A program made the position numbers and the translations under genes. From Luteolibacter sp. (GTDB taxonomy: Bacteria > Verrucomicrobiota > Verrucomicrobiia > Verrucomicrobiales > Akkermansiaceae), in assembly GCA_039978775.1 (NCBI GenBank), contig JBDWAR010000023.1, positions 18,304 to 82,303 of the forward strand: 64,000 nucleotides of DNA. The letters run 5' to 3'. Shown here piece after piece: positions 12,463 through 27,483 of the stretch. How positions within the stretch are numbered: the first letter of the stretch is position 1; each line of letters starts with the position of its first letter. The notes below the pieces were generated by a model. It had not been told where the DNA came from and did no database searches. It saw only the letters and a list, made by a program, of their open reading frames with translations.

Positions 12463-13256
12463 GGGTTTGGGTCGGGTGAAGGTTCGGCGTCTCGCGCTCC
12501 GCGGAAGCCGAGGCCGGGCAGGCAGAAATCGCCTTTCAGAGAAGAGCGGAAGGCCATGCGCATGAAGTTTGCGTATTCGGTGGCCTGGTTCGGGTCGGCA
12601 CCGCCACCGCCGCAGAATTGCTGGGCGTTGAGTGTGCCATCGGAGCGTGCTTCGCCACTGGTCATGGCGGAGACAAAGTTCGCGGTCCATTCCCAGACGA
12701 TGCCGTGCATGCCAGTGGCACCGTAGATGTTAGATTCACCTTTGGTGACATCGGGAAGCACGTCGGGGGTGGGGCGGGAGTACCAATCGAGGATCTTGGT
12801 TTTGAAAGTGGGATCATCGTTGGCGTCGATGGAGTGGAGATTGGCGCGTGCGACAAATTCCCATTCATCGACGGAGGGTAGGCGTTTGTCGACGGATTTC
12901 AAGAAGGCGCGGGCGGCGAACCATGAGATGCAGACGACGGGAGCGTCCGGCGGGGCGTTGGGGCCCAGTTCGGTATCGCCCGCCCATTTCGAGAGGTAGC
13001 CTTGATCGGCGAAAAGACGCTTCACCCGCGAGCGTTGCCACTCCGGGTGTTGCGTAACGAACGCGAGAAACTCGGCGTTCGTGGTTTGACGCACATCGAT
13101 GAGAAAGTCTTCGACAGTTCTGGTTTTTCCGTCCTTTTCAAGCGGCCTCTCGTAGGTGCCGCCTGTGACGGGCACCATGAGTGAGGTGGGGATCTCTACG
13201 GCCACCGCGGTAAGGCAGAGGCCGATCGAGATGAGGAACTGTCGGAGGGGACTCAT
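12459..13256 (-). CDS. nirV: Formylglycine-generating-enzyme-fold protein, NirV-like
   Basis: PVVCISWFAARAF, RLPSVDEWEFVA, GMHGIVWEWT, GFRGA; translationally coupled to nirK. Confidence 0.75.
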   Translation of the reverse strand: MSPLRQFLISIGLCLTAVAVEIPTSLMVPVTGGTYERPLEKDGKTRTVEDFLIDVRQTTNAEFLAFVTQHPEWQRSRVKRLFADQGYLSKWAGDTELGPNAPPDAPVVCISWFAARAFLKSVDKRLPSVDEWEFVARANLHSIDANDDPTFKTKILDWYSRPTPDVLPDVTKGESNIYGATGMHGIVWEWTANFVSAMTSGEARSDGTLNAQQFCGGGGADPNQATEYANFMRMAFRSSLKGDFCLPGLGFRGARDAEPSPDPNP

Positions 13257-14704
13257 TATTTTGCGCGTGCTTTGGCGACTTCGTCAGGGGTGACTTCCCA
13301 GCCTGCGTTTTCCCATGAGTTGGAGACGTAGGTGAGCACGTTGGCAACGTCCTCGTCGTTGAGGGTGAGGGCAGGCATGACGCTGTTGTATTTGTTGCCG
13401 TTGACAGTAACCTCACCGCTGAGGCCGTGGATCACGGTGTTGATCGCCCTATCCTTGTCGGCATTCAGGTAATCCGAGCCGGCGAGGGGAGGGAATGCGG
13501 CAGGGATGCCCTGGCCTTCCGCCTGGTGGCAAGCGATGCAGTTGGTAGCGTAAACGTTCTTGCCGCGATCGATGCGCTCTTGCTTGGTATTCGCTGCTGC
13601 AAGAGGAGTTCCTTGATCCGGCATGGTCTGTGGGGTGCCGCCTTCGGGAAGGTAGATGTTGTCGCTGCGCTTGCCGGAATAGACGAGCGGATCCGGCTCA
13701 CCCTCGACATTGATCATGGCGATGGCTCCTTTGTTGAATGCACGGGTCAGCGCGTGATCGACGAGGATCACTTTTCCGGGAACGTCCACTTTGAACTCAA
13801 CCATTGCCGCGCCGCCTGGGGGGACCAGGGTTGTCTGAACGTTGGAATTGATCAAACTAAGGCCGCCTTCGACATAGACCTTGTCGAAGATTTCACCGAT
13901 GGCATGGAAAGATGAACTCAGGTTGGGGCCGCCGTTTCCAAAGAAGATGCGGACGGTTTCGCCCTTGGTTACGTTGGGGGTGTTTTCGCCGAGCATGCTG
14001 CCGACACTGCCGTTGAAGACCACGTAATCGGGTCTTTCGTCGATGGCTTTCTCCATGGAGAAGGGTTGCAGACCTTGCTCGCCGTTGCGGCCTTTGGTGT
14101 AGAAGTCGCCCTGCATGACGTAGAACTCATGATCCACCTTTGGCAGGCCTTCTTTGGGCTCCACATAGATGAGGCCATACATGCCGTTGGCCACGTGCAT
14201 GCCGACCGGTGCGACCGCGCAGTGGTAAACGTAGAGGCCGGGATTGAGCACGCGGAACGAGAATGTCGTGCTGTGGCCGGGTGCCGTGAAGGATGCTGCA
14301 GCGCCACCCCCGGGACCGTTGACTGCATGAAGGTCGATGTTGTGGGGCATCTTGTTGCCGGGACGGTTCATCAGTTCGAACTCAACGACATCACCCTCGC
14401 GGACGCGGATGAAAGAGCCGGGGACGGTGCCACCGAATGTCCAGAACGTGTAGTCCACGCCATCGGTCATTTTCATGACTTTTTCGACCACTTCGAGCTT
14501 CACGTGGACTTTGGTCGCATGGTCGCGCTCGATGGCTGGCGGGACGTGGGGTGGGCTGGTGAGTTGGGCGGTTTCTTCGCCCGTCACGTCGGCTGGCATC
14601 GTGATGTCGCCGGTGGCGAGGTGTTCTTCCTCGGCAGTGGAGATTCCGGCAGCCATTGCGGATGCGAAGCTCAATACTCTGATGGCATTTTTTATGTTTT
14701 TCAT
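13256..14704 (-). CDS. nirK: Copper-containing nitrite reductase with C-terminal cytochrome c
   Basis: [55 protein letters not shown]; C-terminal CIACH ... MPAL haem c domain; Sec signal. Confidence 0.96.
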
Positions 14705-14833: not shown

Positions 14834-15493
14834 TTAATCACCTGCGCCCAGTATGCCGATGCGGTAGGCTTTGCTGATGGCCGCCGGGGCGTTCTGCACA
14901 TCGAATTTTTCGTAGATGTGGCGGACGTGGGTGGCCACGGTGAAGGCGCTGATATCGAGTTCCGTGGAGATTTCCTTTTTCACTTTTCCTTCGCTGAGCA
15001 GCTTGAGGATTTCGATCTCGCGCTCTGAGAGCGGGCACTTCTCCTGAGGTTTAGGCAGCTTGGGCTGCAAGGTTTCCATCATCAAGCGGGCGACCAAGGG
15101 ATCGAGCGATGCGCCGCCATTCATGACGGTCTGGATGCCTTCTCGGATCTGGGTGGTGCTGGCGGATTTCATCAGGTAGCCGTCGGCTCCCATCGAGATG
15201 CAGCTCAGGATGTCGTTTTTCCGGTCGGACTGGGTGAGGATGATGATCTTGATGTCCGGGTGGTATTCGCGGAACAAGGGGAGAGCTTCCATCCCTGTCA
15301 TGCCGGGCAGATTGAGGTCGAGTAAAACGAGGTCGGGTCGGCCGCTGCGGCTCTGGAGCTCGCGCAGAGCGACTTCCGCCGTGCCGAACTGGCTGCTGAG
15401 TTCCATGTCCTGCTGGTCTTCCAGGGCGCAGGCGATGCCCATTCGGTAAGCGCGGTTGTCTTCCACCAGCATGATTTTTGTTTTTCGGTTCAT
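14834..15493 (-). CDS. NarL/LuxR family response regulator
   Basis: IMLVED, VLLDLNLPGM, GYLMK, LSEREIEIL.LLSEG..KKEI..EL.IS.FTVATH. Confidence 0.95.
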   Translation of the reverse strand: MNRKTKIMLVEDNRAYRMGIACALEDQQDMELSSQFGTAEVALRELQSRSGRPDLVLLDLNLPGMTGMEALPLFREYHPDIKIIILTQSDRKNDILSCISMGADGYLMKSASTTQIREGIQTVMNGGASLDPLVARLMMETLQPKLPKPQEKCPLSEREIEILKLLSEGKVKKEISTELDISAFTVATHVRHIYEKFDVQNAPAAISKAYRIGILGAGD

Positions 15494-15576
15494 GGGATTG
15501 TTTTGGGACGATGGGACAATATAGGTGCTTCGCGGTTTTTTTGGAACAGAATCCATCAGTCGTAGGAATATGCGAG

Positions 15577-17571
15577 TCAGAGCCATGAGCCGAAGTTAAG
15601 GAGTTTCTTCGGTTGGACTTTCAGGGTGATGCGTGTGCCGCCCTCTTCCGGGCTTTCGACGTTCACCTTGCCGCCGAGAAGCCGGGCGCGGCGTTTGAGC
15701 GAAGGAGGGGTATGGAGCCCCGCGATGCCGGATCCGTTGTCGGTGACGCGGAGGCGGATGTTCCTGGAGTCGGCGGACAGAATGGTCTGCACGCGGGTGG
15801 CGCCGGAGTGGCGGAGGATGTTGGTGAGGCATTCCTTATAGAAGCGGAACAGGCCGTTGCGGCGGCGAGGAGAGAGGGAGCGAATGATCTCGTCGTCGGT
15901 GATAGTGAGGGTGTGCTGCATATCGGCGAGGAGGCGGTCGGCCATCCGCTTCATTTCACCTGAGAGATCGGCGTAGAGGTCTTTTGCAGCAAGCAGGTTG
16001 GTGCAGTAGCGCGCGGTGGCACCGGTCTCTGTGGTGAGGGCACAGACGGCGTCGGTGTATTCCATGAGCTTGCTCCATTTGCCGTTATCGTTTTTCTCCT
16101 CCACCTCCTGCTTGGCGAGGTTCCCGAACAGCCCGATGGCATAGAGGTTGGCGCCGAGTTCATCATGCAGGTTCGCGGCGATGCGTTCGCGTGTCTCGAA
16201 GATGGCGCGTTGGCGGGCGGCCTTCTGGATGAGAACGAGGATGATGCCCCCGGCCAGCATGAAGGCGATCAGCCATCCCGCATATTTCAGGGTGGCCCTT
16301 TGTTTGGCGTAGCGCGCGGAGAGTTCGGCGATCACACGCGGGCGTTCCACTTCCAGATCGTGGCGGAGCGCCAGTTGGTTCATCCATGTCCGCACAGGCA
16401 GGATCTCTCCATACAAATTGAAGCCATCCGTCAGCACTCCGAAAGAGCGGGTGGCTGGGTGGAGTGTTCCGGTGCCGCTGATGGGTTTGCCCAATGCGAC
16501 GTTGCGCCCCGCAGCGAGCACCTCGATCTCGGCGAAGCCGATCTGGAAAAGTTCCTGCTCCGGATTGGCATCGGTGATGCGGACGTAACGGCAGCGGGTT
16601 TCTGGGAAGCTCCACATCATGATCGAGCCGATGTCGTCGAAGCTATCGAACTGGAAATCCAGTAGTTCCGTGGCATCCAAAAAACCGGGATCATTGGCAC
16701 CTTCGACTTTCAGGTGCAAAGGGATGCCGAAATTGCCGGGGTGTGCCTGCGGGACCGTATCGCTTTGCTCGACCGCATGCAGATGGATGCCGGAAATCAA
16801 AATGGATTCTCCGAGATCGACGGTTAAGGAAGGGTTTTGGGCGGGCTGGCTGACGTAGGCCACGCTCTTTTTCCCCAGCGCTCCGTCCATCAGGTAGGGC
16901 AGGTTGCCATCCGTCAGGAAACGCGATCCCCATGTCCTTTGCAGTCGCTCGATGTGGTTCGATGAAGCCGTCACCGGCTGGCGCAACGCGACATTTTCAT
17001 CCCCGCTGAAAACCAGAACCTCGGAGAGTTGGAATACGTGGCGGCCATCGAATGATCGGGCGGCGAGTTGGGTTGCCTCGATTCTCACCCAGGACGCGGT
17101 GGTTCCTTTTTTCACGGGCACGACCAGCGGTGCGATGCGCGGCAGCAGGTGTGCGGTGGATGGGTAGTTTGCGATGACGGTACCGTTGCTGTCCCCGTCG
17201 GTTCCGGCGAGGATACGGAATGAGATGGGAAAAGCGTCGGCTTCGAATCCCTGTTTGGAATCGCGCCAAAGGAGCGGAGCCAGCACCACTTGGTCGATAG
17301 TATATTCCCTGCCGAGATCGATTTTGATCCATTCGGTGTGATCCCCGCTTTTGTGGCTACTCGAGCGGAATCCGATGGCACCGATGCCGCCCCGCAGGCT
17401 GGGCTGCGCCAATTCATCAAGCTGCTCGTCGATTTCGGCCAACCGTTGTTCGAGCGACGGTAGGGTGGCGGAGCCGAGTGCATCAATTGCACCCTCTTCG
17501 GCGAACAGGGCGAGGCCTCCCATGAGGGCGGTTCCTATAGCGATGGTGACTCTCAACACAGCAACCCTCAT
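15577..17571 (-). CDS. Sensor histidine kinase (HisKA_3) with periplasmic F5/8C galactose-binding-like domains
   Basis: Signal peptide; WIKIDLG..Y.ID.VVL, YVRIT, NVALGKP; TM YAGWLIAFMLAGGIILVLI; RIAANLHDELG; VTDNGSG. Confidence 0.88.
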   Translation of the reverse strand: MRVAVLRVTIAIGTALMGGLALFAEEGAIDALGSATLPSLEQRLAEIDEQLDELAQPSLRGGIGAIGFRSSSHKSGDHTEWIKIDLGREYTIDQVVLAPLLWRDSKQGFEADAFPISFRILAGTDGDSNGTVIANYPSTAHLLPRIAPLVVPVKKGTTASWVRIEATQLAARSFDGRHVFQLSEVLVFSGDENVALRQPVTASSNHIERLQRTWGSRFLTDGNLPYLMDGALGKKSVAYVSQPAQNPSLTVDLGESILISGIHLHAVEQSDTVPQAHPGNFGIPLHLKVEGANDPGFLDATELLDFQFDSFDDIGSIMMWSFPETRCRYVRITDANPEQELFQIGFAEIEVLAAGRNVALGKPISGTGTLHPATRSFGVLTDGFNLYGEILPVRTWMNQLALRHDLEVERPRVIAELSARYAKQRATLKYAGWLIAFMLAGGIILVLIQKAARQRAIFETRERIAANLHDELGANLYAIGLFGNLAKQEVEEKNDNGKWSKLMEYTDAVCALTTETGATARYCTNLLAAKDLYADLSGEMKRMADRLLADMQHTLTITDDEIIRSLSPRRRNGLFRFYKECLTNILRHSGATRVQTILSADSRNIRLRVTDNGSGIAGLHTPPSLKRRARLLGGKVNVESPEEGGTRITLKVQPKKLLNFGSWL

Positions 17572-17657
17572 ATCATGAATGGCAAAGGTGGAGAACTAGT
17601 GAGTTAGAATCGGTTTTCAAATGGTGGGTACTCTGGAGGAGATGTGCGCTTCGGACC

Positions 17658-17676
17658 ATCGCTTAAACGTGCGATA
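17658..17676. promoter_or_regulatory. 19-bp palindromic operator, copy 1
   Basis: ATCGCTTAAACGTGCGATA in the divergent kinase/PEP-CTERM spacer; recurs at 18800 and 20431. Confidence 0.75.
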
Positions 17677-17759
17677 GGCCGGTCGTGGAGCGGGACTAGG
17701 ATGTCAAATCTCTGGAAGCCAAAAAGCTCCATGTTACCCAATTCAACTCAACCAGAAAA

Positions 17760-18539
17760 ATGAACAAACCACTCACAACACTCGGAGCATGCCTGCTGAT
17801 GGCAGGTGCCGGACAGGCGGCGACTCTACTGAACTTCACCCAGTTTAACAATGATGCCACGGCGTTGGTAGATGGCTCCGCCACGGGTCTCAGCATTGTG
17901 AAGAATGATGTGGACGTGTCAGGAAACAATCAAATCCTCTTTAACGTCACCTATACCGGCGCGGATTTCAATGGTGACACGATCAACGACACCTTGACCT
18001 TTAAGCTGCGGGTTCAGGGTTACTCGGGTGGCACTGCGACTACGTCACTGCCGAATGGTGCCGATCAGTCTGGCACCGGTGGATCCGTTACCCTTGGAAC
18101 TGCGGCGGCGGTCGGGACACGCCAAACCACCTTTTTCGGGCAGACCACCACCATGCCATTCGGTAGCACCGTGCAGTTCAGCATCGAAAGCATTGCAGTG
18201 AATATCGCGGGTTATGGCGGAGCCTCCTTGGGTTTTGATGCCCTGCGAGTGGAGGAAGGCACATCTTCCGGGCATAGTAAACTCGCGATCATTGGTGTTG
18301 GAACAAACCTTACCGAACGTGAGTTCAATGACGGTTTTACCTTTAATCTGAGTTCCAATCGTCAAAGCGTCCTCTTTGTTAGCTCCGCACAAGCAGTCGG
18401 CACGACGGTTAGTCCGACAGCGTGGGGCATCGATCGACTTGGATTCGACATCAGTGTGGACGTGATTCCCGAGCCAAGCACCTCCGCGATGCTGCTCGGC
18501 GCTCTCGGCCTGCTGACGCTGCGCCGCCGCCGCAAGTAA
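17760..18539 (+). CDS. PEP-CTERM sorting domain protein
   Basis: Signal peptide; ends IPEPSTSAMLLGALGLLTLRRRRK. Confidence 0.93.
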   Translation: MNKPLTTLGACLLMAGAGQAATLLNFTQFNNDATALVDGSATGLSIVKNDVDVSGNNQILFNVTYTGADFNGDTINDTLTFKLRVQGYSGGTATTSLPNGADQSGTGGSVTLGTAAAVGTRQTTFFGQTTTMPFGSTVQFSIESIAVNIAGYGGASLGFDALRVEEGTSSGHSKLAIIGVGTNLTEREFNDGFTFNLSSNRQSVLFVSSAQAVGTTVSPTAWGIDRLGFDISVDVIPEPSTSAMLLGALGLLTLRRRRK

Positions 18540-18563
18540 GCGGGATTTATTTTCATTTCAAAT

Positions 18564-18605
18564 GCGTGGGATGCCGTCTTCGGACTAGCGTCCCACGCTT
18601 TTTTT
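18564..18605 (+). terminator. Rho-independent terminator
   Basis: GCGTGGGATGC...GCGTCCCACGC followed by a T run. Confidence 0.8.
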
Positions 18606-18799
18606 GTGCTCCAGCGCCGCGATCAAATACATTTTGGGTGGGTGCCGTGATAGGAGGAGCAGCACTCCGGTCGTAGGTAAGATTTTCTGACTTAGAAATG
18701 GTTCGTCGGGAGAAAGCAGAGGCGATGGAGTACAAACGCGCTGCGGTTTTTCCTCGACTCTATTCGAGCCAAATTCTCCGGACTGAGGCACTTCGCCCT

Positions 18800-18818
18800 A
18801 TCGCTTAAACGTGCGATA
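18800..18818. promoter_or_regulatory. 19-bp palindromic operator, copy 2
   Basis: Identical ATCGCTTAAACGTGCGATA, 90 nt before the ATG at 18909. Confidence 0.75.
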
Positions 18819-18908
18819 TACGGAGCTTGGGTAAGTGCCTAAGTTTCAAGCGGATCAGGTGGTGGAAATGCGCCGCCTCGTTCAAAAGGAAACCCAGAAA
18901 CGAACAAA

Positions 18909-19628
18909 ATGAAAAAAACACTAACAACTCTAAGCGCAGGCCTGCTGATGGCAGGCGCAGCACACGCGGCGACAACCGCTTTGAACTTGGCAGCCGCTGG
19001 TAACTACTCTGCTTCTGGGACAACCACCACGACTGAAACGATAAGTACGGCTGTCACGGTCTCGACCTCAGTGACTATCGGCACGACCGGTTCATTCGAT
19101 ATCGTGTATACCCTTGGTTCTACTGGGGGCGCGAATTCGTTCGTTAATTCGACTGGATCCCAATATGGAGTTGGGTCTGATACTGATATTTCCGCTCACT
19201 ATAGCACTCTCGAGGGTAGCGATGCTGAAGGCATTTCATTCACCGGTCTCACAGTCACCAATTTCGTGGCGGGCGACAGCGGACTCACAGTCGGCGACAT
19301 CACCGATTTGACATTCACGACCGTATCGTTCAATAATGTAAACAATGCTCAAGATGGTGTGAATATATCTTTCACCAGCTTTGGTGACGCCGGAGCATTC
19401 AATCAGAATCTAAGTGCAACTGGGACTCCCTACACGCATGATCTGACAGCTCAAGGTAATTACAGCGCACCAGCTACCAGCTTGTTTCTTGAGAATGACA
19501 ATGCTTTCGGCTCTAACCGCTGGGCTATCGAAGGACTTGAAGTCTTTTACAACATTCCCGAGCCATCCTCGACTGCTCTTGTCGGACTTGGCTTTGCTGG
19601 TCTTCTGCTTCGCAGAAAGCGTAACTAA
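18909..19628 (+). CDS. PEP-CTERM sorting domain protein
   Basis: Signal peptide; Thr/Ser-rich; ends IPEPSSTALVGLGFAGLLLRRKRN. Confidence 0.93.
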   Translation: MKKTLTTLSAGLLMAGAAHAATTALNLAAAGNYSASGTTTTTETISTAVTVSTSVTIGTTGSFDIVYTLGSTGGANSFVNSTGSQYGVGSDTDISAHYSTLEGSDAEGISFTGLTVTNFVAGDSGLTVGDITDLTFTTVSFNNVNNAQDGVNISFTSFGDAGAFNQNLSATGTPYTHDLTAQGNYSAPATSLFLENDNAFGSNRWAIEGLEVFYNIPEPSSTALVGLGFAGLLLRRKRN

Positions 19629-19651
19629 GCGATAAGCTTGAGATTTCTCTA

Positions 19652-19685
19652 AATACCTCCAGGTGAATGCCTGGGGGTGTTTTTG
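19652..19685 (+). terminator. Rho-independent terminator
   Basis: ATACCTCCAGG-TGAATG-CCTGGGGGTGT followed by a T run. Confidence 0.65.
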
Positions 19686-19869
19686 TGTCATGATGGGCGG
19701 TGGGAGAATTGATTCGGAGTGGCGCGCAGCACTTTTGTACCAATGGCATTTCAAGTGTGGTGAGCATCGCCGCTTTTGCTTCTTCTGATGCGTCTCGAAA
19801 TCGTTCCAGTCGGATGGATTCATTGAGGCTGGCACGAGATTAGGCCGATTATCGTAGAACGGGCAAAGA

Positions 19870-20150
19870 TGGCCGCTCAGCGCCGTCGTTTCTGTGGAAT
19901 CGCTACGGCACCCGTCTGCATCCGATCCCGATGCTTGTATGTAGCCAGCGTCAGAGGTGAGAGGCTTCCACGTTCATTCTGAATCGTGCCGCGCCCTTTC
20001 CTGGACGGCTTGGAGAGACCGTCCCTGCGCCGGCCAGCTCCTTCTCTATCGCAGCAAAGCGCACATCCGCATAGCGCAGGAAGATCCGCCCGAGCACGGT
20101 GGGCGAGTCATCGGAGGGTTTAAGATCCGCTCCTGCCCAGAGCATGTTCG
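19870..20150 (-). pseudogene. Type I restriction-modification HsdM N-terminal remnant
   Basis: LWAGAD-LKPSDDSPTVLGRIFLRYADVRFAAIEKEL resembles the HsdM_N LW.AAD...LK.SEYS.PVLGLIFLRYAD.RF motif, then decays. Confidence 0.6.
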
Positions 20151-20240
20151 GAGCCGAATGCCGCGTAATCCAGCCCTCGGCAACTACTGCGCCACTGCCA
20201 CTTCATTGTTTCTAGATGGTTTGTGAACGGGACTACGCTG

Positions 20241-20313
20241 GATGTCGTCCCCGAGCCCCGCCATGCTCCTCGGCGGTCTCGGCGTGTTGGCACTCCTTCG
20301 TCGCGGCAAGTAA
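20241..20313 (+). pseudogene. Orphan, frameshifted PEP-CTERM tail
   Basis: DVVPEP, then in a shifted frame AMLLGGLGVLALLRRGK*; followed by gcaggact (cf. gcgggatt after 18539). Confidence 0.7.
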
Positions 20314-20430
20314 GCAGGACTCGCTTCTAAAGCTCCTCGCGAGGGACGCACGGTTTTCGAACCGGCGTCCCTTATTTTTTGGTCAACTAACCCCGGTCAC
20401 GGCTCCGAGTGCTCGATATATTACCGCCTC

Positions 20431-20449
20431 ATCGCTCAAACGAGCGATA
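20431..20449. promoter_or_regulatory. 19-bp palindromic operator, copy 3
   Basis: ATCGCTCAAACGAGCGATA (17/19 identical to copies 1-2; perfect 7-4-7 inverted repeat), upstream of the sulfatase operon. Confidence 0.72.
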
Positions 20450-20590
20450 CACAAAGGGAGGGATCCAGCTAGTTTTCTGAGGAAGGGTGGCTGTCCGATC
20501 CTCGTTTGCTCCATTCTCACTGTATCCGTTGCAAAATATTTGTCTCAATAGGGCGAAAGAACTCAACTTTAATTTAGAAACAACCATCCC

Positions 20591-22000
20591 ATGCACCACC
20601 TGCTTTTGAAATTATACACTGCCATTGTATTGCCGCTCCTTTGTGCAGGCAACGTCTCCGCGGAGACACCGGAAGACAGCCGCCCCAACATCATTTTCAT
20701 CTTTGCGGATGACTGGGGTTACGGCGATATCGGTATCCACGGCAGCACTTTTTGCGATACGCCGAACCTCGACAAGATGGCGAAGGAGGGGATCGACTTC
20801 GCGAACTTCACGGTGAACAGCCCGGTCTGCTCACCCAGCCGGGTGGCGGTGATGACGGGTCAGTTTCCTGCACGCCATAGCATCCATCAGCACTTCCAGA
20901 GTGTGAAGGCGCACATCAAGAGGGGCATGTCCGATTGGCTCGATGTGCAGGCACCGATGCTGCCGCGTTTCCTCAAAGAGGCGGGATATAAGACTGGACA
21001 CTTCGGCAAATGGCACCTCGGCAGCTCCGGCGACTCACCGACAGAGGATAAATACGGCTACGACAGCTTCGCGACCTTCAACGGCTCCGGGGTGAATGAG
21101 ATCAAGAAGGAAGGGCTGGCCTCCGTGGATCACGCGGAGAAGTTCATCCGCGAAAACAAGGATCAGCCGTTTTTCGTGAATCTCTGGCTGCACGAGGTTC
21201 ACACCGCACATTTCCCGCAGGAGCGTTATCTGGAAAAATTCAAGGATCTCAACGAGGCGGAGCGCGTCTATGCGTCGGTCATTGCCGAGGGAGATGAGGC
21301 GGTCGGTCGCATCATGAAAGTGCTCGACGAGCTCGGTATCGATGACAACACCCTGGTTGTTTTCTCCACCGACAACGGCCCGGAATCCTCCGATGACGAG
21401 AAAGAGCACAAGGACACCGGCGGGCTCGGTAAGTTCTATTCGGTCGGTGAAACGGCCGGCTTGAAAGGGGAGAAGCGTTCCCTGTTCTCCGGTGGCATCC
21501 GCGTGCCGTTCATCGTTCGCTGGCCGGGCGTGGCTCCGGCGGGGACGGTTGATAAAACCTCCTTCGTGACTGCCGTGGACTTGCTTCCGACCTTTCTCGC
21601 TGCGGCGAAGGTGCCTCTCCAGAAGGATTACGCGCCGGACGGGGAAAATATTTTACCTGCCTTCAAAGGGGAAGGATTCACGAGAACCAAACCCATTTTC
21701 TGGGAATGGCGCGGTGGCACCAGTAAGGACTACACCTGGCCTTCGCTCGCCATCCAGGAAGGCAAGTGGAAGCTCCTCGTGAACAAGGAAGAGAATAAGC
21801 TGGAGCTCTACGACTTGGAGAACGACTGGGCGGAGAAGAATGATCTCGCCGCCGATTTCCCGGAAGTCGTCAAGGAATTGGGCAAAAAACTCGATGCCTG
21901 GAAAGAGTCCCTACCCACGGAGCCTCCCGCAAACGCGCTTTCCCAAGCACGCGGCAAGGTGAAGAAGGATAAGAAAGAGAAAGAGGAGAAGGTGAAATAG
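20591..22000 (+). CDS. Formylglycine-dependent (S1) sulfatase
   Basis: PNIIFIFADDWG, CSPSRVAVMTG, GKWHLG, FSTDNGP, GIRVPFIVRWPG. Confidence 0.95.
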   Translation: MHHLLLKLYTAIVLPLLCAGNVSAETPEDSRPNIIFIFADDWGYGDIGIHGSTFCDTPNLDKMAKEGIDFANFTVNSPVCSPSRVAVMTGQFPARHSIHQHFQSVKAHIKRGMSDWLDVQAPMLPRFLKEAGYKTGHFGKWHLGSSGDSPTEDKYGYDSFATFNGSGVNEIKKEGLASVDHAEKFIRENKDQPFFVNLWLHEVHTAHFPQERYLEKFKDLNEAERVYASVIAEGDEAVGRIMKVLDELGIDDNTLVVFSTDNGPESSDDEKEHKDTGGLGKFYSVGETAGLKGEKRSLFSGGIRVPFIVRWPGVAPAGTVDKTSFVTAVDLLPTFLAAAKVPLQKDYAPDGENILPAFKGEGFTRTKPIFWEWRGGTSKDYTWPSLAIQEGKWKLLVNKEENKLELYDLENDWAEKNDLAADFPEVVKELGKKLDAWKESLPTEPPANALSQARGKVKKDKKEKEEKVK

Positions 22001-22027
22001 ACCGCTCCGGCAAACCCAATTCAACTC

Positions 22028-23473
22028 ATGGAAAAAATGAAAATTCTACTATTCCCGCTGACCATACTGGTCTCTGGCATTCTGCCACTTCAGGCGCAAA
22101 AAGAATCCGAAAAGCAGAATCCCGACATCAGCTTTGAGCACCGCTTCGCCGGTGACCTTCAGCAGACACCGGACTCGATCGCCAGACAAGAGCTCTGGTT
22201 CCGCGATGCGAAGTTTGGCGCGTTCATCCACTTTGGAGTCTATTCCGCATTGGAAGGAGAGTATGAGGGGCGTGGCGCGCAGCACCGGTATTCCGAGTGG
22301 GTTCAGATTTCCGCGAAAATGTCGGCTGATGAGTATCGGAAGGTGGCGGCAAATTTCAATCCGGCCGAGTTCAATGCCGACGAGTGGGCGAAAGTTTTCA
22401 AGGATTCCGGCATCCGCTATGTGGTCATCACCTCGAAGCATCACGACGGCTTCGCCTTGTTTGATTCGATGGTCAGCGACTACAACATCGTCGATTTCAC
22501 CCCGTTCAAGCGTGACATCATCAAGGAACTCAGCGAGGCGTGCCATGCTCAGGGATTGAAGTTCGGTGTCTATTATTCGCAGGCGCAGGATTGGGATGAA
22601 CCGGATGCTCCATTCATTAAACCACGATTCAACGGGCACCGGGCGATCATCCACCCTGATCTGCCAGAGGACTTCAAGCCGGACATGGATCGCTACATTG
22701 CCAAAAAGAGCCTGCCGCAGGTGGAAGAGTTGGTGAAAAATTATGAGCTCGATCTGATCTGGTTCGACACCCCATCCGACATGACCTTCGAGCGTGCCAA
22801 GCAGTTCAGTGATGTGGTCCGTAAATACCGTCCCAACTGCCTGATCAATTCCCGGATCATTCATGGGGGCAAGGATCAGATCAAAGCCGAGAATCTTCCG
22901 CTCTTCGATTATGTTTCAATCGGCGACAAGGAAGTGCCGGATCGGAAGCTTCCGCTCTATTTCGAGTCTCCCGACAGCGTCAGCTCCTCCTTCGGCTACA
23001 AGACCAAAGGCGACCACTACTACCACACGGAACAAGAGATGATTCATCGCTTTGTTCATACGGTCTGTGCCGGCGGGAACGCTCTGATCAACAACGGCCC
23101 GATGGGCAACGGTAAGCTGGATCCCGAAGCGATCCGCATCTACGGCGCTATGGGCGTCTGGCTCAAGGACAACGGGGAGTCGATTTATGAAACACGTCGC
23201 AACCCGCTGCCCAACCGCCCGGAATGGGGCGACTGCTCTGTCAGCAAAGACGGCAAGACGCTTTATCTCCATGTCCTCGAATGGCCGGAGTCCGGCAGCC
23301 TCACGGTGAATGACCTTTCCGCCGAAGCGACATCCGCGGTGTATCTGCAAAACGGCGAAAAAGCTGAATTTGTGCAGGATGGCTCCTCCATGAAAATCAC
23401 GCTGCCTGCCGAGCCGCTGAATGAATACGATACCGTGGTGAAAATCACCTTCGGAACCAGCGTCGGGGAGTAG
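22028..23473 (+). CDS. Alpha-L-fucosidase, GH29
   Basis: WFRDAKFGAFIHFG, FNP.EFNADEW, TSKHHDGF.LFDS, LIWFD, LINNGP.GNG. Confidence 0.92.
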   Translation: MEKMKILLFPLTILVSGILPLQAQKESEKQNPDISFEHRFAGDLQQTPDSIARQELWFRDAKFGAFIHFGVYSALEGEYEGRGAQHRYSEWVQISAKMSADEYRKVAANFNPAEFNADEWAKVFKDSGIRYVVITSKHHDGFALFDSMVSDYNIVDFTPFKRDIIKELSEACHAQGLKFGVYYSQAQDWDEPDAPFIKPRFNGHRAIIHPDLPEDFKPDMDRYIAKKSLPQVEELVKNYELDLIWFDTPSDMTFERAKQFSDVVRKYRPNCLINSRIIHGGKDQIKAENLPLFDYVSIGDKEVPDRKLPLYFESPDSVSSSFGYKTKGDHYYHTEQEMIHRFVHTVCAGGNALINNGPMGNGKLDPEAIRIYGAMGVWLKDNGESIYETRRNPLPNRPEWGDCSVSKDGKTLYLHVLEWPESGSLTVNDLSAEATSAVYLQNGEKAEFVQDGSSMKITLPAEPLNEYDTVVKITFGTSVGE

Positions 23474-23501
23474 CCCGGGTAACTTTTGTTCTTTAAAAGC
23501 T

Positions 23502-24296
23502 ATGAAGACTTCATTGAGAAAATGTAGGGGGACACTTCTGGCCGTCGTATCTTCCTGTCTCTGCATTGGATCGGTTTACGCCGGGTCGGCGGAGGATGCG
23601 TGGGTGAAATTGGTCGGCGAGAAGTTTTCGGAGCGTCCGGAATTTGCCTTTGTGGAAAATGATCCGGCGTTGCCCAATGTGCTGATCTATGGCGATTCCA
23701 TCTCCATCCATTATACGGAGCGCTTGCGTGAAAAAATGGCGGGCAAGGCGAATGTCTACCGGCTCTATTGCAACGGTGGTGACTCCGGCACGTTCATCAA
23801 AAAAATGACTTACATGCACAAAGTCATGGGCAGCAAGCGACTTGATACGCCTTGGGACTTTCAGTGGGATGTCATCCAGTTCAACGTCGGCCTGCATGAT
23901 CTGAAATACCTTTCAGGACGGAAACTCGACAAGGTGAACGGCGAACAGGTCTCTTCTATCGAGACCTACAAGGAAAACCTTGGCAACATCGTCTCCTACC
24001 TGAAGGAACTGGCTCCACAGGCATCGCTCATCTTCGCAACGACGACTCCCGTCGCGCCGGACGAGGCTGGGCGGAAGGAAGGCGATTCGGAAAAATACAA
24101 TGCCGCCGCCCGCGAAGTGCTTGAGAAGCATCCAGAAATTGTGATCAACGATTTGTTTGCATTCACCAAGCCACACCATTCCGAATGGTGGATTGCTCCG
24201 GACAACGTCCACTACAATGAAGCGGGCTACCAGGCACAGGGGGACGAAGTGGCGCGTGTGATTCGCGGCGTGCTCGCCGCGAACGGGAAAAAATAG
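23502..24296 (+). CDS. SGNH/GDSL hydrolase
   Basis: VLIYGDSIS, FNVGLHD, ATTTPV, DNVHY. Confidence 0.88.
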   Translation: MKTSLRKCRGTLLAVVSSCLCIGSVYAGSAEDAWVKLVGEKFSERPEFAFVENDPALPNVLIYGDSISIHYTERLREKMAGKANVYRLYCNGGDSGTFIKKMTYMHKVMGSKRLDTPWDFQWDVIQFNVGLHDLKYLSGRKLDKVNGEQVSSIETYKENLGNIVSYLKELAPQASLIFATTTPVAPDEAGRKEGDSEKYNAAAREVLEKHPEIVINDLFAFTKPHHSEWWIAPDNVHYNEAGYQAQGDEVARVIRGVLAANGKK

Positions 24297-24313
24297 CCTG
24301 TGAAATCTACGAA

Positions 24314-25288
24314 ATGATCCGAGGAAAATGTATGTTGTTTGTAGTCGTGGCGACGGGCGCGCTGGCGTTGTGTTTTAGCAGCATCGCGTCAGCCCGGCAG
24401 CCTGTTTCGGAAGTCCCCTGGGAAGGGGAGTCCTTTCTGAATGTGATCTACAAGCAGGTCGATGGGCGGCAGATCAGGATGGATATCTATTTGCCGCCGG
24501 GTGAGAAATCCGAGGCGGCGGCTCCTGTCATCTATTACGTGCATGGCGGAGGATGGGCTGCCGGAAGCAAGGCAAAGGGCGGCCTTCCGCTGATGCTGCC
24601 GGTGTTCCGGCAATTGGCTGAAAAGGGTTTCGTCTGCGTGTCCATCGACTACCGGCTCTACAAACCTGGAAATGGTGTGCTGATGCGGGATTGCGTTACG
24701 GATGCAGTGGACGGTCTTCGGTTTCTCAAGAAAGAGGCGAAGCAGTATGGAATTGATCCGGACAAGATCGTGGTGTGGGGCGATTCGGCTGGCGGCCAAC
24801 TTGCCCAGATGTTGGCGCTAGCCGACCCTAAAACATTCCCGGGCGATGAATCGCTTGCAGAGTTCGATGTCCAGCCGATCGCCGGAATTTCCTGGTATGG
24901 CCCCACTGACTTCACCGATACCAAGCTCTTCAAGGTCGACTCATCCGATAAGGAGCCTGATCGTTTCGGCTCGCGAATCACCGGGACGGAAGGCGGGTAT
25001 GCGGAAAATCCGAAAGCCTACGAGGAGATGAGTCCGTATTTTTGGATTTCGAAACAGAGTCCACCGATGCTGCTGATCCAAGGTGACAAAGACACCACGA
25101 TCCCGCTCGCCCATGCACCCCATCTCAAGGAGAAGGCCGACAAGATTGGGGCGGATGTCACGATGATGATTGTGAAGAACGCCGGGCACAACTGGAGGAA
25201 GGTCGGCGGGGAGATCGAACCCAGCCTGGAAGAAATACAACGCATCACGGCGGACTTCGCCTCGCGCCATATCGAGCGCAGTAAGTAG
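24314..25288 (+). CDS. Alpha/beta-hydrolase esterase (BD-FAE/HSL-like)
   Basis: YVHGGGW, SIDYRL, WGDSAGG, IQGDKD.TIP, NAGH. Confidence 0.9.
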   Translation: MIRGKCMLFVVVATGALALCFSSIASARQPVSEVPWEGESFLNVIYKQVDGRQIRMDIYLPPGEKSEAAAPVIYYVHGGGWAAGSKAKGGLPLMLPVFRQLAEKGFVCVSIDYRLYKPGNGVLMRDCVTDAVDGLRFLKKEAKQYGIDPDKIVVWGDSAGGQLAQMLALADPKTFPGDESLAEFDVQPIAGISWYGPTDFTDTKLFKVDSSDKEPDRFGSRITGTEGGYAENPKAYEEMSPYFWISKQSPPMLLIQGDKDTTIPLAHAPHLKEKADKIGADVTMMIVKNAGHNWRKVGGEIEPSLEEIQRITADFASRHIERSK

Positions 25289-25308
25289 GCTGGAAATTTT
25301 AGGATAAC

Positions 25309-27483
25309 ATGAAGGAATTATTGATTTTGATTTTTGCGGCGTTGGTCGCAAGTGGTTGCAGCAACGAGCAAGCTAAGGCGAATGCGGACTTCTATCTGTC
25401 ACCCGAAGGCTCGGACGAGTGGTCAGGAACACTGGCGGAGCCGAATGCGGACAAAACCGACGGGCCGTTTGCGACCTTGGAACGGGTGCGGGATGCAGTT
25501 CGTAAGCTGAGGGAGAACAAGTCGAAGGGGATCTTGGTTCAGGTTCGTGGCGGCACCTACCCGCTTGATGAAACGGTGGTCTTTGGCTTGGAAGACTCGG
25601 GCGCGGGGGAACTGACAATCACCTACGCGGCATATCCGGAGGAAAAACCCGTGTTCAGTTCGGGAAAAGCGGTTGATGGCTGGAAGAAGGTCGATGCTGG
25701 TATCGCCGGATTATCAGAAGCTGCCAATGGGAAATTATGGGTCGCCGATGTCTCGGAGCAGTTTTTCACGCTGTATGATTCCGAAGGACGGTTGCCACGG
25801 GCGCAGTCCGAAAAGTTCATTCCGCTCGAAGGTGGAGGAAAGAACCGGCTGCATTTCCCTGAGGGAAAACTGAAGAACGGGCCGAATGTGGAAGATCTCG
25901 AAATCTTCGTGCGCCCGCATCATGCGTGGATTTTGAACATCCTGCCTGTGGTCTCTGTGGATGAGAAAAAGCAGATTGCCATGACCTCCATCGACGCGAC
26001 GTATTCGATGAATCCGCTCCATTTCCTCAAGACGACGGAATCTTGCTGGGTGGAGAATGCCTTGGACTACTTGGATGAACCGGGTGAATGGGTTCTCAAC
26101 ACCAAGGAAAAGAAGCTCTACCTATGGCCAAGGAAAGAAGGCCAGCCGGAGGGCATTCTGGCACCTTGCCTGGAGGAATTGATCCGGGTGGAGGGCAAGA
26201 TCGACAAGCCGGGGCCGACGGATGTTCCGGTGACGAATCTTCATTTCCGCGGCCTGACCTTCACGCATGGCGACCGCTATCTGGTTAAAGAAGACGATGC
26301 CGGGTTGCAGCACGACTGGGATTTCCTTGATAAGGGCAACGCACTGCTACGCCTGCGCGGGACGGAGAACTGTGTGATCGAACAATGCCACTTTCTCCAG
26401 AGCGGCAGTGGCGCGATCCGGGTGGATCTGCATGGCCAGAAAAACCGGATTTCCGGCAACGTGATCGAGCACATGGGCGGAGCCGGAATCCTGCTCTGTG
26501 GATACGGGCCGGGAACGAAGGATGTGAACAAAGACAATCTCGTCTCGAACAATCACATCCATCACGTTGGGGAAATCTACACCCACTCGCCGGGCATCAT
26601 GGTCTGGCAGAGCGGCGAGAACCGCGTGGCAAACAACCTGATCCACCACACCCCTTATACGGGTCTGATCATTTCCGGCTGCATGACCGATTTCTTCTCG
26701 AAAAACGGTGGGCGGGAACTTGCGAGGACTCTCCGGAAGGATGAGATGCCAGGGCTTCCGAAGAAACCGAAACTGGAAGATGTCCGCCCCTACCTCCACA
26801 CTCATGACAATACTTTCGAATACAACGAGATTCATCACGCGATGGAAATGATGGGGGACGGCAATGCGATCTACATTCGAGGCGCGGGCGCGGGGAACAT
26901 CATCCGGAGAAACTACGTTCACCACTTGGTTGCCCCGATGATCATGCAGGCGGCGATACGGACGGATGGCGGGCAGATGGATACGCTTATCGCCGAGAAT
27001 GTAGTCTATAAATGCACGTCGCAGGGGATCCTGATGAAGCTCAACAACCGTTGTGAAAACAACATCGTCGTGGACATCATCGCTCCGCCGCGCGGTTATT
27101 ACCTATCCCTGCGCGAGGGGCCGCTCACCGGTGCCACCATCCAGCGCAACATCTTCTACTCCACCTATCCGGACACCACGTTCATCGACGAGCTGGAGGC
27201 CAAGAACACCGGTGCAATCGAAGATGCCCGCGGCCGGGAAATCGCCTTCGCCAAAGACGCCGATGCCGATCACAACATCTACTTCAGCACCGTCGATCTG
27301 GCGATGGCGGAGAATTTCCTAGAGAAACAGCAGAAGGACGGGGTGGATCAGCACAGCCTCGCCACGGATCCGCTCTTCGTGGATCCGGAAAACGGCGACT
27401 TCTCCTTCCAGCCCGACTCACCTGCTCACAAGCTCGGCATCGTGCCGATCGATCTGAGCAAGATTGGTCTGATCAAAGACTAG
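25309..27483 (+). CDS. Right-handed beta-helix lipoprotein, GH141-like
   Basis: Lipobox LVASGC; FYLSPEGSD..., DGPFATL, RGGTY.L, ITYAAYP.EKPV.SSG, DGNAIY, PLFVD...GDF. Confidence 0.7.
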   Translation: MKELLILIFAALVASGCSNEQAKANADFYLSPEGSDEWSGTLAEPNADKTDGPFATLERVRDAVRKLRENKSKGILVQVRGGTYPLDETVVFGLEDSGAGELTITYAAYPEEKPVFSSGKAVDGWKKVDAGIAGLSEAANGKLWVADVSEQFFTLYDSEGRLPRAQSEKFIPLEGGGKNRLHFPEGKLKNGPNVEDLEIFVRPHHAWILNILPVVSVDEKKQIAMTSIDATYSMNPLHFLKTTESCWVENALDYLDEPGEWVLNTKEKKLYLWPRKEGQPEGILAPCLEELIRVEGKIDKPGPTDVPVTNLHFRGLTFTHGDRYLVKEDDAGLQHDWDFLDKGNALLRLRGTENCVIEQCHFLQSGSGAIRVDLHGQKNRISGNVIEHMGGAGILLCGYGPGTKDVNKDNLVSNNHIHHVGEIYTHSPGIMVWQSGENRVANNLIHHTPYTGLIISGCMTDFFSKNGGRELARTLRKDEMPGLPKKPKLEDVRPYLHTHDNTFEYNEIHHAMEMMGDGNAIYIRGAGAGNIIRRNYVHHLVAPMIMQAAIRTDGGQMDTLIAENVVYKCTSQGILMKLNNRCENNIVVDIIAPPRGYYLSLREGPLTGATIQRNIFYSTYPDTTFIDELEAKNTGAIEDARGREIAFAKDADADHNIYFSTVDLAMAENFLEKQQKDGVDQHSLATDPLFVDPENGDFSFQPDSPAHKLGIVPIDLSKIGLIKD

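Follow-up and report, generated by a model that had tools for sequence, protein, structure and literature searches.

The window analysed here, a stretch of 64,000 nucleotides (nt) on contig C23 of a Luteolibacter genome (Verrucomicrobiota, Akkermansiaceae; assembly of 4.0 Mb, 57.6% GC), carries a rare DNA dyad, ATCGC-N8-GCGAT-A, in front of two genes encoding PEP-CTERM proteins and of an operon encoding a sulfatase and further enzymes. The dyad is probably the operator of the response regulator of the NarL/LuxR type encoded next to it, which is paired with a sensor histidine kinase. The sulfatases, fucosidases of the glycoside hydrolase (GH) families 29 and 95, esterases and PEP-CTERM proteins found behind the sites would fit a regulon for sulfated fucose-containing glycans.

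A rare dyad at promoter positions

The motif ATCGCTYAAACGWGCGATA, in pattern form ATCGCTYAAACGWGCGAT, has exact matches on the + strand at 17658, 18800 and 20431, as an earlier note on this DNA had reported. Dyads 1 and 2 are the same 19-mer, ATCGCTTAAACGTGCGATA, and dyad 3 reads ATCGCTCAAACGAGCGATA. The layout (5-8-5) consists of 5-bp arms ATCGC/GCGAT around an 8-bp A-rich centre, followed by an A. The earlier note had spoken of a 19-bp palindrome; the dyad symmetry is real, but in copies 1 and 2 it is confined to the outer 5 bp, while copy 3 has 7-bp arms. The sites and the hexamers behind them are:

17658..17676, + strand: dyad 1, ATCGC-TTAAACGT-GCGAT-A, oriented to PEP-CTERM-1
17697..17702, + strand: -10-like hexamer TAGGAT, 20 nt past dyad 1
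18800..18818, + strand: dyad 2, identical to dyad 1
18840..18845, + strand: -10-like hexamer TAAGTT, 21 nt past dyad 2
20431..20449, + strand: dyad 3, ATCGCTC-AAAC-GAGCGAT-A, 7-bp arms
20470..20475, + strand: -10-like hexamer TAGTTT, 20 nt past dyad 3

The start codons follow the 19-mers after 83 nt (dyad 1, PEP-CTERM-1), 90 nt (dyad 2, PEP-CTERM-2) and 141 nt (dyad 3, sulfatase operon), the distances first noted. Dyad 1 indeed lies in a spacer shared with the divergent kinase gene, which measures 188 nt (kinase start 17571, PEP-CTERM-1 start 17760). The three upstream regions have no likeness to one another beyond the 19-mer.

No additional match was found in the window at up to two mismatches, and none in 100 dinucleotide shuffles. 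Only four sites within two mismatches of the 19-mer occur on both strands of the 4.0-Mb genome, where about 0.05 are expected: the three sites above and ATCGCACAAACGTGCGATA at C1:55089. The motif is thus not a high-copy repeat, the alternative that the earlier note had named, and all four copies stand at promoter positions. A further site that is weaker but has identical arms, ATCGCACAAATAAGCGATA at C6:88461, brings the number to five. All five sites are intergenic, each oriented to its downstream gene, and those on C1 and C6 both come after sulfatase genes. The gene behind the C6 site encodes a GH95 fucosidase, the gene behind the C1 site a protein of 1140 amino acids (aa) whose sole database similarity is a GspK/pseudopilin-like N-terminal segment. 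Compared with the earlier note, the putative regulon extends past the window, to this GH95 gene and this giant protein gene on contigs other than that of the regulator.

Four of the five sites have a hexamer of the form TAnnnT that starts 20 or 21 nt past the 19-mer (TAGGAT, TAAGTT, TAGTTT, TAACAT); the weaker C6 site has TTAAAT at 20 nt instead. At the dyad sites a consensus scan returned neither a sigma-70 -35/-10 pair nor a -35 match. Taking the hexamer as a -10 box would put the dyad at about -51 to -34, with its centre near -42.5, the position of a class II activator.

The regulator and its kinase

14834..15586, - strand: response regulator, NarL/LuxR-type, receiver (REC) plus GerE helix-turn-helix (HTH) (Pfam)
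15577..17571, - strand: sensor histidine kinase (Pfam F5_F8_type_C, HisKA_3, HATPase_c; AlphaFold2, AF2; Foldseek)

The regulator has the domain composition of the NarL/FixJ family, an N-terminal receiver and a C-terminal GerE/LuxR helix-turn-helix, as judged by Pfam (Response_reg 78.8 bits, cut-off 30.2, 4.5e-22; GerE 58.3 bits, cut-off 23.5, 5.8e-16). Its best NCBIfam matches are NarL and MctR, each under its cut-off, and neither the kinase nor the regulator reaches any named NCBIfam equivalog cut-off. The recognition helix is ISAFTVATHVRHIY. The listed open reading frame of the regulator has a 10-nt overlap with the kinase stop and 36 residues ahead of the receiver domain. Its homologues align only from residues 25-32 onward, and for this reason the true start may be an internal Met at about 15493 (MNRKTKIMLVEDN).

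The kinase consists of an N-terminal membrane segment, an ectodomain with tandem discoidin/F5-8C domains (residues ~60-200 and ~240-370), a second membrane helix, HisKA_3 and HATPase_c. F5_F8_type_C scores 43.5 bits (Pfam cut-off 28.2); HATPase_c is over its cut-off, and HisKA_3, at 20.4 bits, slightly under its cut-off of 24. The kinase next to the regulator is of the HisKA_3 type, the type that partners NarL-family regulators, and the HDE motif with its phospho-accepting histidine (H469, D470, E471) is invariant in 44 homologues. AF2 models, built on a 44-sequence alignment from fetched homologous loci, reached a predicted local distance difference test score of 83 for the full-length kinase and 87 for the ectodomain. 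They have two beta-sandwich domains flanked by two membrane segments, and a long helix followed by a core resembling DesK and CpxA. Foldseek returned only kinase cores, DesK and CpxA, for the full-length model, and the ectodomain was for this reason modelled alone. Its best matches were tandem F5/8C domains, namely Akkermansia muciniphila 8AYR (sialidases and fucosidases), the striped-bass F-lectin 3CQO, ZmpB carbohydrate-binding module (CBM) 32-1/2, neuropilin b1b2 and the C domains of factors V and VIII; a search of the ectodomain sequence against the PDB gave no match. The periplasmic F5/8C-like domains that had been read from the sequence are thus confirmed as a fold, in predicted models, as a tandem discoidin ectodomain akin to CBM32 and F-lectins. 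The ligand of the sensor is suggested by regulon content alone (GH29, GH95, sulfatases, esterases, a GH141-like protein).

Conservation at an orthologous locus

In a kinase search with one genome per species the best match was L053, a metagenome-assembled genome of Akkermansiaceae, with 75% identity in the kinase and 74% in the regulator. The spacer between kinase and PEP-CTERM genes carries, at L053:9887, ATCGCACAAACGTGCGATA, in the same position as dyad 1 and oriented to the orthologue of PEP-CTERM-1 (41% identity). A second site, ATCGCACAAACATACGATA, is located 3' of the regulator gene, ahead of an orthologue of the C1 giant protein (68% identity) and its small partner. In L053 the C1 target is thus a neighbour of the regulator gene, which supports counting the C1 site to the same regulon. 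At both L053 sites exactly 20 nt separate the dyad from a hexamer, TACAGT or TATAAT. In pairwise alignments of the L053 spacers with those of this genome, the dyad and the first two letters (TA) of the hexamer are the sole conserved islands, the rest having diverged. The L053 genes behind the dyad and the PEP-CTERM gene encode a BD-FAE esterase, a sulfatase, a GDSL esterase, a second sulfatase and a LamG protein, enzyme types that match those found here.

Paralogous pairs and giant proteins in the same genome

The genome encodes six further kinases that are closely paralogous to this one (41-48% identity), each paired with a paralogous regulator. Contig C10 has three intergenic sites on the gene strand, GTAGCGTAAACTCGCTATA, GTAGCGTAAACTCGCGATA and GTAACGTAAACTCGCTATA, with arms GTAGC..GCTAT; the genes behind them encode a giant-protein paralogue (1242 aa), a PEP-CTERM protein (289 aa) and a sulfatase. 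These dyads are built like the motif in the window, with arms changed symmetrically (TCGC..GCGA into TAGC..GCTA). Contig C4 has two sites, CCCCCAGATTCATGGGGTA and CCCCCAAATTCATGGGGTA, with arms CCCCC..GGGGT, 20 nt ahead of TATTTT and TAGATT; these precede a divergent 275-aa PEP-CTERM gene and the gene of a 1227-aa giant-protein paralogue. As read from the sequence, three kinase/regulator pairs of one genome each have a private candidate dyad, ahead of a PEP-CTERM gene and of a giant pseudopilin-like gene. The giant proteins (1100-1250 aa) compared are encoded at:

C1:55149-58601
C10:323525-327253
C4:80102-83785
L053:12903-16247

They share a pseudopilin/GspK-like N-terminus (GFALVVTL...) and a conserved C-terminal end (GRRFxVVxFRWL), and belong to no Pfam family. 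About eight paralogues occur in the genome, and three of them have in front, in each case, the dyad type of one kinase/regulator pair. The giant genes of C1 and L053 are followed by orthologous small partners with a signal peptide; the 234-aa neighbour of the C10 giant gene is at most a distant relative of these. Identification of the giant protein as Verru_Chthon cassette protein A or as GspK was rejected, since the match is confined to the first ~60 residues and scores about 19 bits, versus cut-offs of 332 and 130.

Other elements were seen in the genome at or near members of these families. Three promoters around the C16 pair (~98606-98760, 100499-100604 and 111321-111514) have TGAAACAT-N14-CTGTA-N2-TAGG in common, which looks like a promoter of the extracytoplasmic function (ECF) sigma type, not a dyad. 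Near the paralogous kinase on the same contig, a tandem array of 21-nt repeats, with units CGACAAAAGGTTAGGTGACGT and TCGTCACACAGGTTAGTGGC, spans C16:121054-121600. At C7:25376 a perfect dyad, ATCCTGTAAAATGAGGAT, lies between divergent genes for proteins of 1145 and 1358 aa, on a contig devoid of a kinase/regulator pair; the same arm type is found near kinase homologues in other genomes (L050, L075, L111). This dyad may be the remote target of a paralogue to which no dyad has been assigned. A 36-residue fragment at C12:12246-12353, 72% identical to the C-terminal HTH of the regulator, may be the remnant of a closer regulator paralogue.

Dyads across homologous loci

A set of 65 homologous loci was collected from Akkermansiaceae, Opitutia, Pontiellaceae (Kiritimatiellota) and Planctomycetota (Rubripirellula, Stieleria). 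Many of them, in Verrucomicrobiota, Kiritimatiellota and Planctomycetota, have a dyad ATCxy-N8-y'x'GAT-A upstream of the kinase. In 59 kinase-upstream windows of ~360 nt each, 12 perfect ATCxy-N8-y'x'GAT dyads were counted, with about one expected from the density over whole loci (48 per 1.02 Mb, a figure itself raised by ATC and GAT codons). The locus-wide density served as background because such codons inflate dyad counts inside genes; a reversed-sequence control for ATC..GAT dyads (170 in the genome versus 61 expected) was dropped as unfair. An A at position 19 combined with TAnnnT at +20/21 is found at 7 of the 12 dyads on the strand leading away from the kinase, and at none on the other strand. 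The dyads had been picked irrespective of their flanks, and at a background rate of 0.004 the binomial P is ~1e-14; some of the 12 come from related genomes, the pattern being present in roughly five of nine independent lineages. The 8-bp centre of the 12 dyads is A-rich on the promoter-directed strand. In the divergent spacers of L059 and L069 a single dyad has -10-like boxes at 20-21 nt on either side, which fits a DNA site serving two promoters.

The arms of the dyads vary together with the recognition helix of the neighbouring regulator:

helix ...TVATHVRH: arms ATCGC (this locus, L053)
helix TVDTHIRH: arms ATCAC (L072, L078, L080, L109)
helix KTV(E/D)THIRH: arms ATCAG (three Pontiella genomes)
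helix Y(S/T)TVDTHVAH: arms ATCCC / ATCCT (Stieleria, Rubripirellula)
helix TVAIHAGH: arms ATAGG (L059, L060)
helix TVDSHVRN: arms TAGC (contig C10)
helix TVxE(H/Y): arms CCCC (contig C4, L085, L090)
helix TVAYH: arms xCCCx (L066, L067, L069, L071)

The correspondence is suggestive of arm positions that change with the helix, as would be expected if the site is read by the neighbouring regulator and not by a global factor.

Genes of the locus and neighbouring features

The genes downstream of the dyads, whose calls agree with Pfam, as do those of regulator and kinase, and the hairpins between them are listed below.

17760..18539, + strand: PEP-CTERM protein 1, 259 aa (Pfam)
18564..18606, + strand: intrinsic terminator after PEP-CTERM-1 (sequence reading; scan match 18587-18599 plus T-run)
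18909..19628, + strand: PEP-CTERM protein 2, 239 aa (Pfam)
19656..19684, + strand: terminator-like hairpin plus T-run after PEP-CTERM-2 (sequence reading)
20343-20380: hairpin plus T-run immediately ahead of dyad 3
20591..27483, + strand: five-gene enzyme operon (Pfam; small intergenic gaps)
20591-22000, + strand: sulfatase, operon gene 1 (Pfam)
22028-23473, + strand: GH29 alpha-L-fucosidase, operon gene 2 (Pfam)
23502-24296, + strand: GDSL esterase, operon gene 3 (Pfam)
24314-25288, + strand: BD-FAE esterase, operon gene 4 (Pfam)
25309-27483, + strand: beta-helix GH141-like protein, operon gene 5 (Pfam)

Because the hairpin and T-run elements at 18564-18606, 19656-19684 and 20343-20380 divide them, the three sets of genes are taken as separate transcription units. 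The two PEP-CTERM domains score 24.9 and 28.1 bits (Pfam cut-off 20.7), and exosortase PF09721 is present at two loci of the genome, as expected for exosortase cargo. PEP-CTERM-1 is the member of a tiny family, with just five homologues in 5.8 billion proteins; the signal peptides of PEP-CTERM-1 and PEP-CTERM-2 are alike, their mature parts unrelated. Between PEP-CTERM-2 and dyad 3, at 20216-20313, lies a decayed PEP-CTERM tail (…TTLDVVPEP, a 1-nt frameshift, AMLLGGLGVLALLRRGK*) with its own terminator, the hairpin at 20343-20380. Open stretches on the - strand at ~19700-20200 may be the remnant of another gene. On the other side, a gene unrelated to the regulon adjoins that of the regulator and encodes a multicopper-oxidase/NirK-like protein fused to cytochrome c (13256-14704, - strand).

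Sequence blocks flank some of the dyads. A G-rich, TGGGA-like block occurs ~10 nt past the dyad, with a C-rich stretch immediately ahead of it, both at the sites assigned to this pair (in the window at 17685-17695, 18828-18834 and 20456-20464, and on C1 and C6) and at those on C10. Neither block is found at the sites of the L053 orthologue or of C4, and RNAalifold detected no conserved pairing.

Proposed mechanism and alternatives

The mechanism envisaged is that of a conventional two-component activator, ordinary in kind; this operator and this regulon are not described in the literature searched. The membrane kinase would sense a glycan, probably a fucose-containing sulfated glycan or its oligosaccharides, through the periplasmic tandem discoidin/CBM32-like domains, autophosphorylate on H469 and pass the phosphate to the regulator. 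A regulator dimer would then occupy the dyad, centred ~42.5 bp upstream of the transcription start, over the missing -35 element, and recruit RNA polymerase in the manner of class II activators. At least five units would be switched on: the two PEP-CTERM genes, the sulfatase/GH29/esterase/beta-helix operon, the GH95 gene and the gene of the 1140-aa pseudopilin-like protein. In this scheme we infer binding by the regulator, activation in place of repression, the transcription start and the ligand. The interpretation of the earlier note, a dedicated regulator with a visible operator, here of the NarL type, is supported at the level of sequence since the motif is low-copy and sits at promoters, is kept beside the L053 pair, and has symmetric variants at paralogous pairs, and since the sensor has the F5/8C fold and the genes would suit a regulon for sulfated fucose glycans.

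Several observations weigh against this interpretation. The strict 19-mer has no match in 60 related species representatives, and conservation therefore depends on one close orthologue and on likeness at the level of architecture. A loose 16-mer, GCNYAAACNNGCNATA, occurs in relatives at control level only; together with the lack of the strict 19-mer, this makes the exact motif species-specific, the architecture alone being shared. At the other four close paralogous pairs (C18:580k, C15:28k, C18:345k and C16:108k) no dyad of the 5-8-5 architecture was found, and the kinase-upstream dyads of L072/L109, L083 and L088 do not have the A19/-10 pattern on the expected strand. The covariation of helix and half-site is confounded by common ancestry. 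The placement at -42.5 depends on an unmapped -10-like hexamer, and a site overlapping the -35 region could also serve repression.

Repression is the subject of one alternative, which we regard as unlikely: the regulator would repress at the dyad, or its unphosphorylated form would occlude the -35 region until relieved by the glycan signal. NarL-family regulators do repress at some promoters, and the dyad overlaps the region where a -35 element is expected. Yet no target promoter has a recognisable -35, and the 20-21 nt to the -10-like box, which keep both on one helical face, are maintained across phyla. A repressor site needs no fixed phase, while fixed spacing is the usual signature of activator-dependent promoters. 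It is also quite improbable that the dyad is bound by another factor, global or independent of the locus. Binding of this regulator to the site is a prediction, and two sites are on other contigs, remote from the regulator gene; but the arms change from pair to pair in step with the recognition helix, among paralogues as well as orthologues, and the remote C1 target is found directly behind the regulator gene in L053. To our knowledge, moreover, the arms are unlike CRP or FNR-type half-sites.

The palindrome could in principle act as an RNA hairpin in the 5' leader, for instance as attenuator, processing site or small-RNA site. Symmetric arm changes would preserve base pairing as well, three variants have a G at position 1 facing a T at position 18, which would give G-U pairs, and in copy 2 the flanking sequence lengthens the fold (z = -3.7). 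Such a role is nevertheless very improbable, as the RNAalifold consensus is a 6-pair hairpin alone (-5.9 kcal/mol), devoid of a conserved outer stem, copies 1 and 3 have no folding advantage over shuffles (z ~ -1.3), and an Rfam search gave no match. The element is moreover upstream of the conserved -10-like box, and a single dyad with such boxes on both sides, as found in divergent spacers, is sensible for DNA, not for RNA. Hardly any credit can be given to a chance repeat, a miniature mobile element or the leftover of a local duplication upstream of PEP-CTERM genes. In favour of such an origin, the identical copies 1 and 2 each stand before a PEP-CTERM gene, the signal peptides of the two products being similar, and the decayed third PEP-CTERM tail and the possible opposite-strand gene fragment are close by. 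Against this, the similarity of the three upstream regions ends with the 19-mer, as that of the two PEP-CTERM proteins ends with the signal peptide, independent sites are located on two other contigs and in another species, and the copies in the genome are only about five.

Relation to known systems

An operator for the adjacent regulator finds its closest parallels in NarX/NarL and other NarL/FixJ systems, among which NarL with its 7-2-7 sites, GacA/UvrY with its 18-bp box and DesK-DesR. The HisKA_3 kinase with a DesK-like core and the REC plus GerE regulator are shared features. Regulators of this family bind inverted repeats, and the 18-bp inverted repeat found here suits a dimer. The sensor differs, being a tandem discoidin/CBM32-like ectodomain and not a four-helix or membrane sensor, and so does the half-site ATCGC with its 8-bp A-rich spacer, which is not described in the literature searched. 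The lux box is a 20-bp dyad centred near -42.5, and LuxR/TraR class II promoters are similar in that a dyad covers the place of an absent -35 and keeps a constant spacing to the -10 box, here a -10-like hexamer. In the present case, however, activation would need phosphorylation of the receiver and not a domain binding acyl-homoserine lactones, and the transcription start is a predicted one.

The earlier note had viewed the locus as a verrucomicrobial counterpart of the polysaccharide utilization loci (PULs) controlled by hybrid two-component systems (HTCS) in Bacteroidota. As a functional analogy this holds: a putative periplasmic glycan-binding sensor, encoded beside degradative genes, would turn on a locus dedicated to one substrate, and a genome has many such paralogous pairs of sensor and locus (six close paralogues here). 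By descent it does not, the pair being a NarL-type two-component system not homologous to HTCS. Kinase and regulator are separate proteins, and the DNA-binding domain is a GerE HTH and not an AraC HTH, so that the locus falls outside the definition of HTCS. Unlike in HTCS PULs, no SusC/D-type domains were detected among the products scanned, the cargo being PEP-CTERM proteins and the pseudopilin-like giant protein.

The PrsK/PrsR sigma-54 system was defined at proteobacterial PEP-CTERM genes, and motifs outside Proteobacteria were left open (Haft et al. 2006, PMC1569441). Both cases combine a two-component system with a cis-element shared by single-gene PEP-CTERM units with long leaders. The regulator described here has no Sigma54_activat domain in Pfam, and is thus not of the PrsK/PrsR kind. 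In place of an enhancer and a -24/-12 promoter there would be a dyad near -42.5 and a -10-like box, and the putative regulon joins PEP-CTERM cargo to catabolic enzymes and not to exopolysaccharide synthesis. EpsA (TIGR03020), a further regulator of LuxR type, is matched over the HTH only (54.6 bits versus a cut-off of 170).

Implications for glycan use in PVC bacteria

Marine Verrucomicrobiota and their relatives of the Planctomycetes-Verrucomicrobia-Chlamydiae (PVC) group are the main known degraders of fucoidan-type glycans, for which they use hundreds of enzymes. The literature searched holds no account of how these enzymes are switched on and off in PVC bacteria, and no description of this operator or of the discoidin-sensor kinase family. 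For PVC bacteria, the one mention in that literature of HisKA_3 kinases close to genes for sulfatases and glycoside hydrolases is a remark on gene neighbourhood (PMC10880615).

A broader and tentative proposal, which we consider doubtful, is that the locus represents one case of an undescribed, modular glycan-response cassette found throughout PVC bacteria. The cassette would comprise a kinase with tandem discoidin domains, a NarL-type regulator whose half-site is set by its recognition helix, and a regulon that, in addition to the enzymes, always includes an exosortase-sorted surface protein and a giant protein, with one cassette for each glycan. PEP-CTERM and giant proteins would then form a surface apparatus for capture or uptake, a functional counterpart of SusC/D. 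In such a cassette the residue after 'TVx' may set positions 2-3 of the 5-8-5 half-site (T: TC; Y/E: CC; I/S: TA), the giant protein may be typified by 1100-1250 aa and a pseudopilin-like N-terminus, and the range may cover Verrucomicrobiota, Kiritimatiellota and Planctomycetota.

What makes the system most interesting is the geometry conserved across PVC bacteria, together with the dyads private to individual paralogous pairs and the regular presence of PEP-CTERM and giant proteins in the putative regulons. A readable operator would make regulons predictable from sequence, join enzymes encoded on separate contigs to one signal, and tie exosortase cargo and giant pseudopilin-like proteins to the use of glycans.

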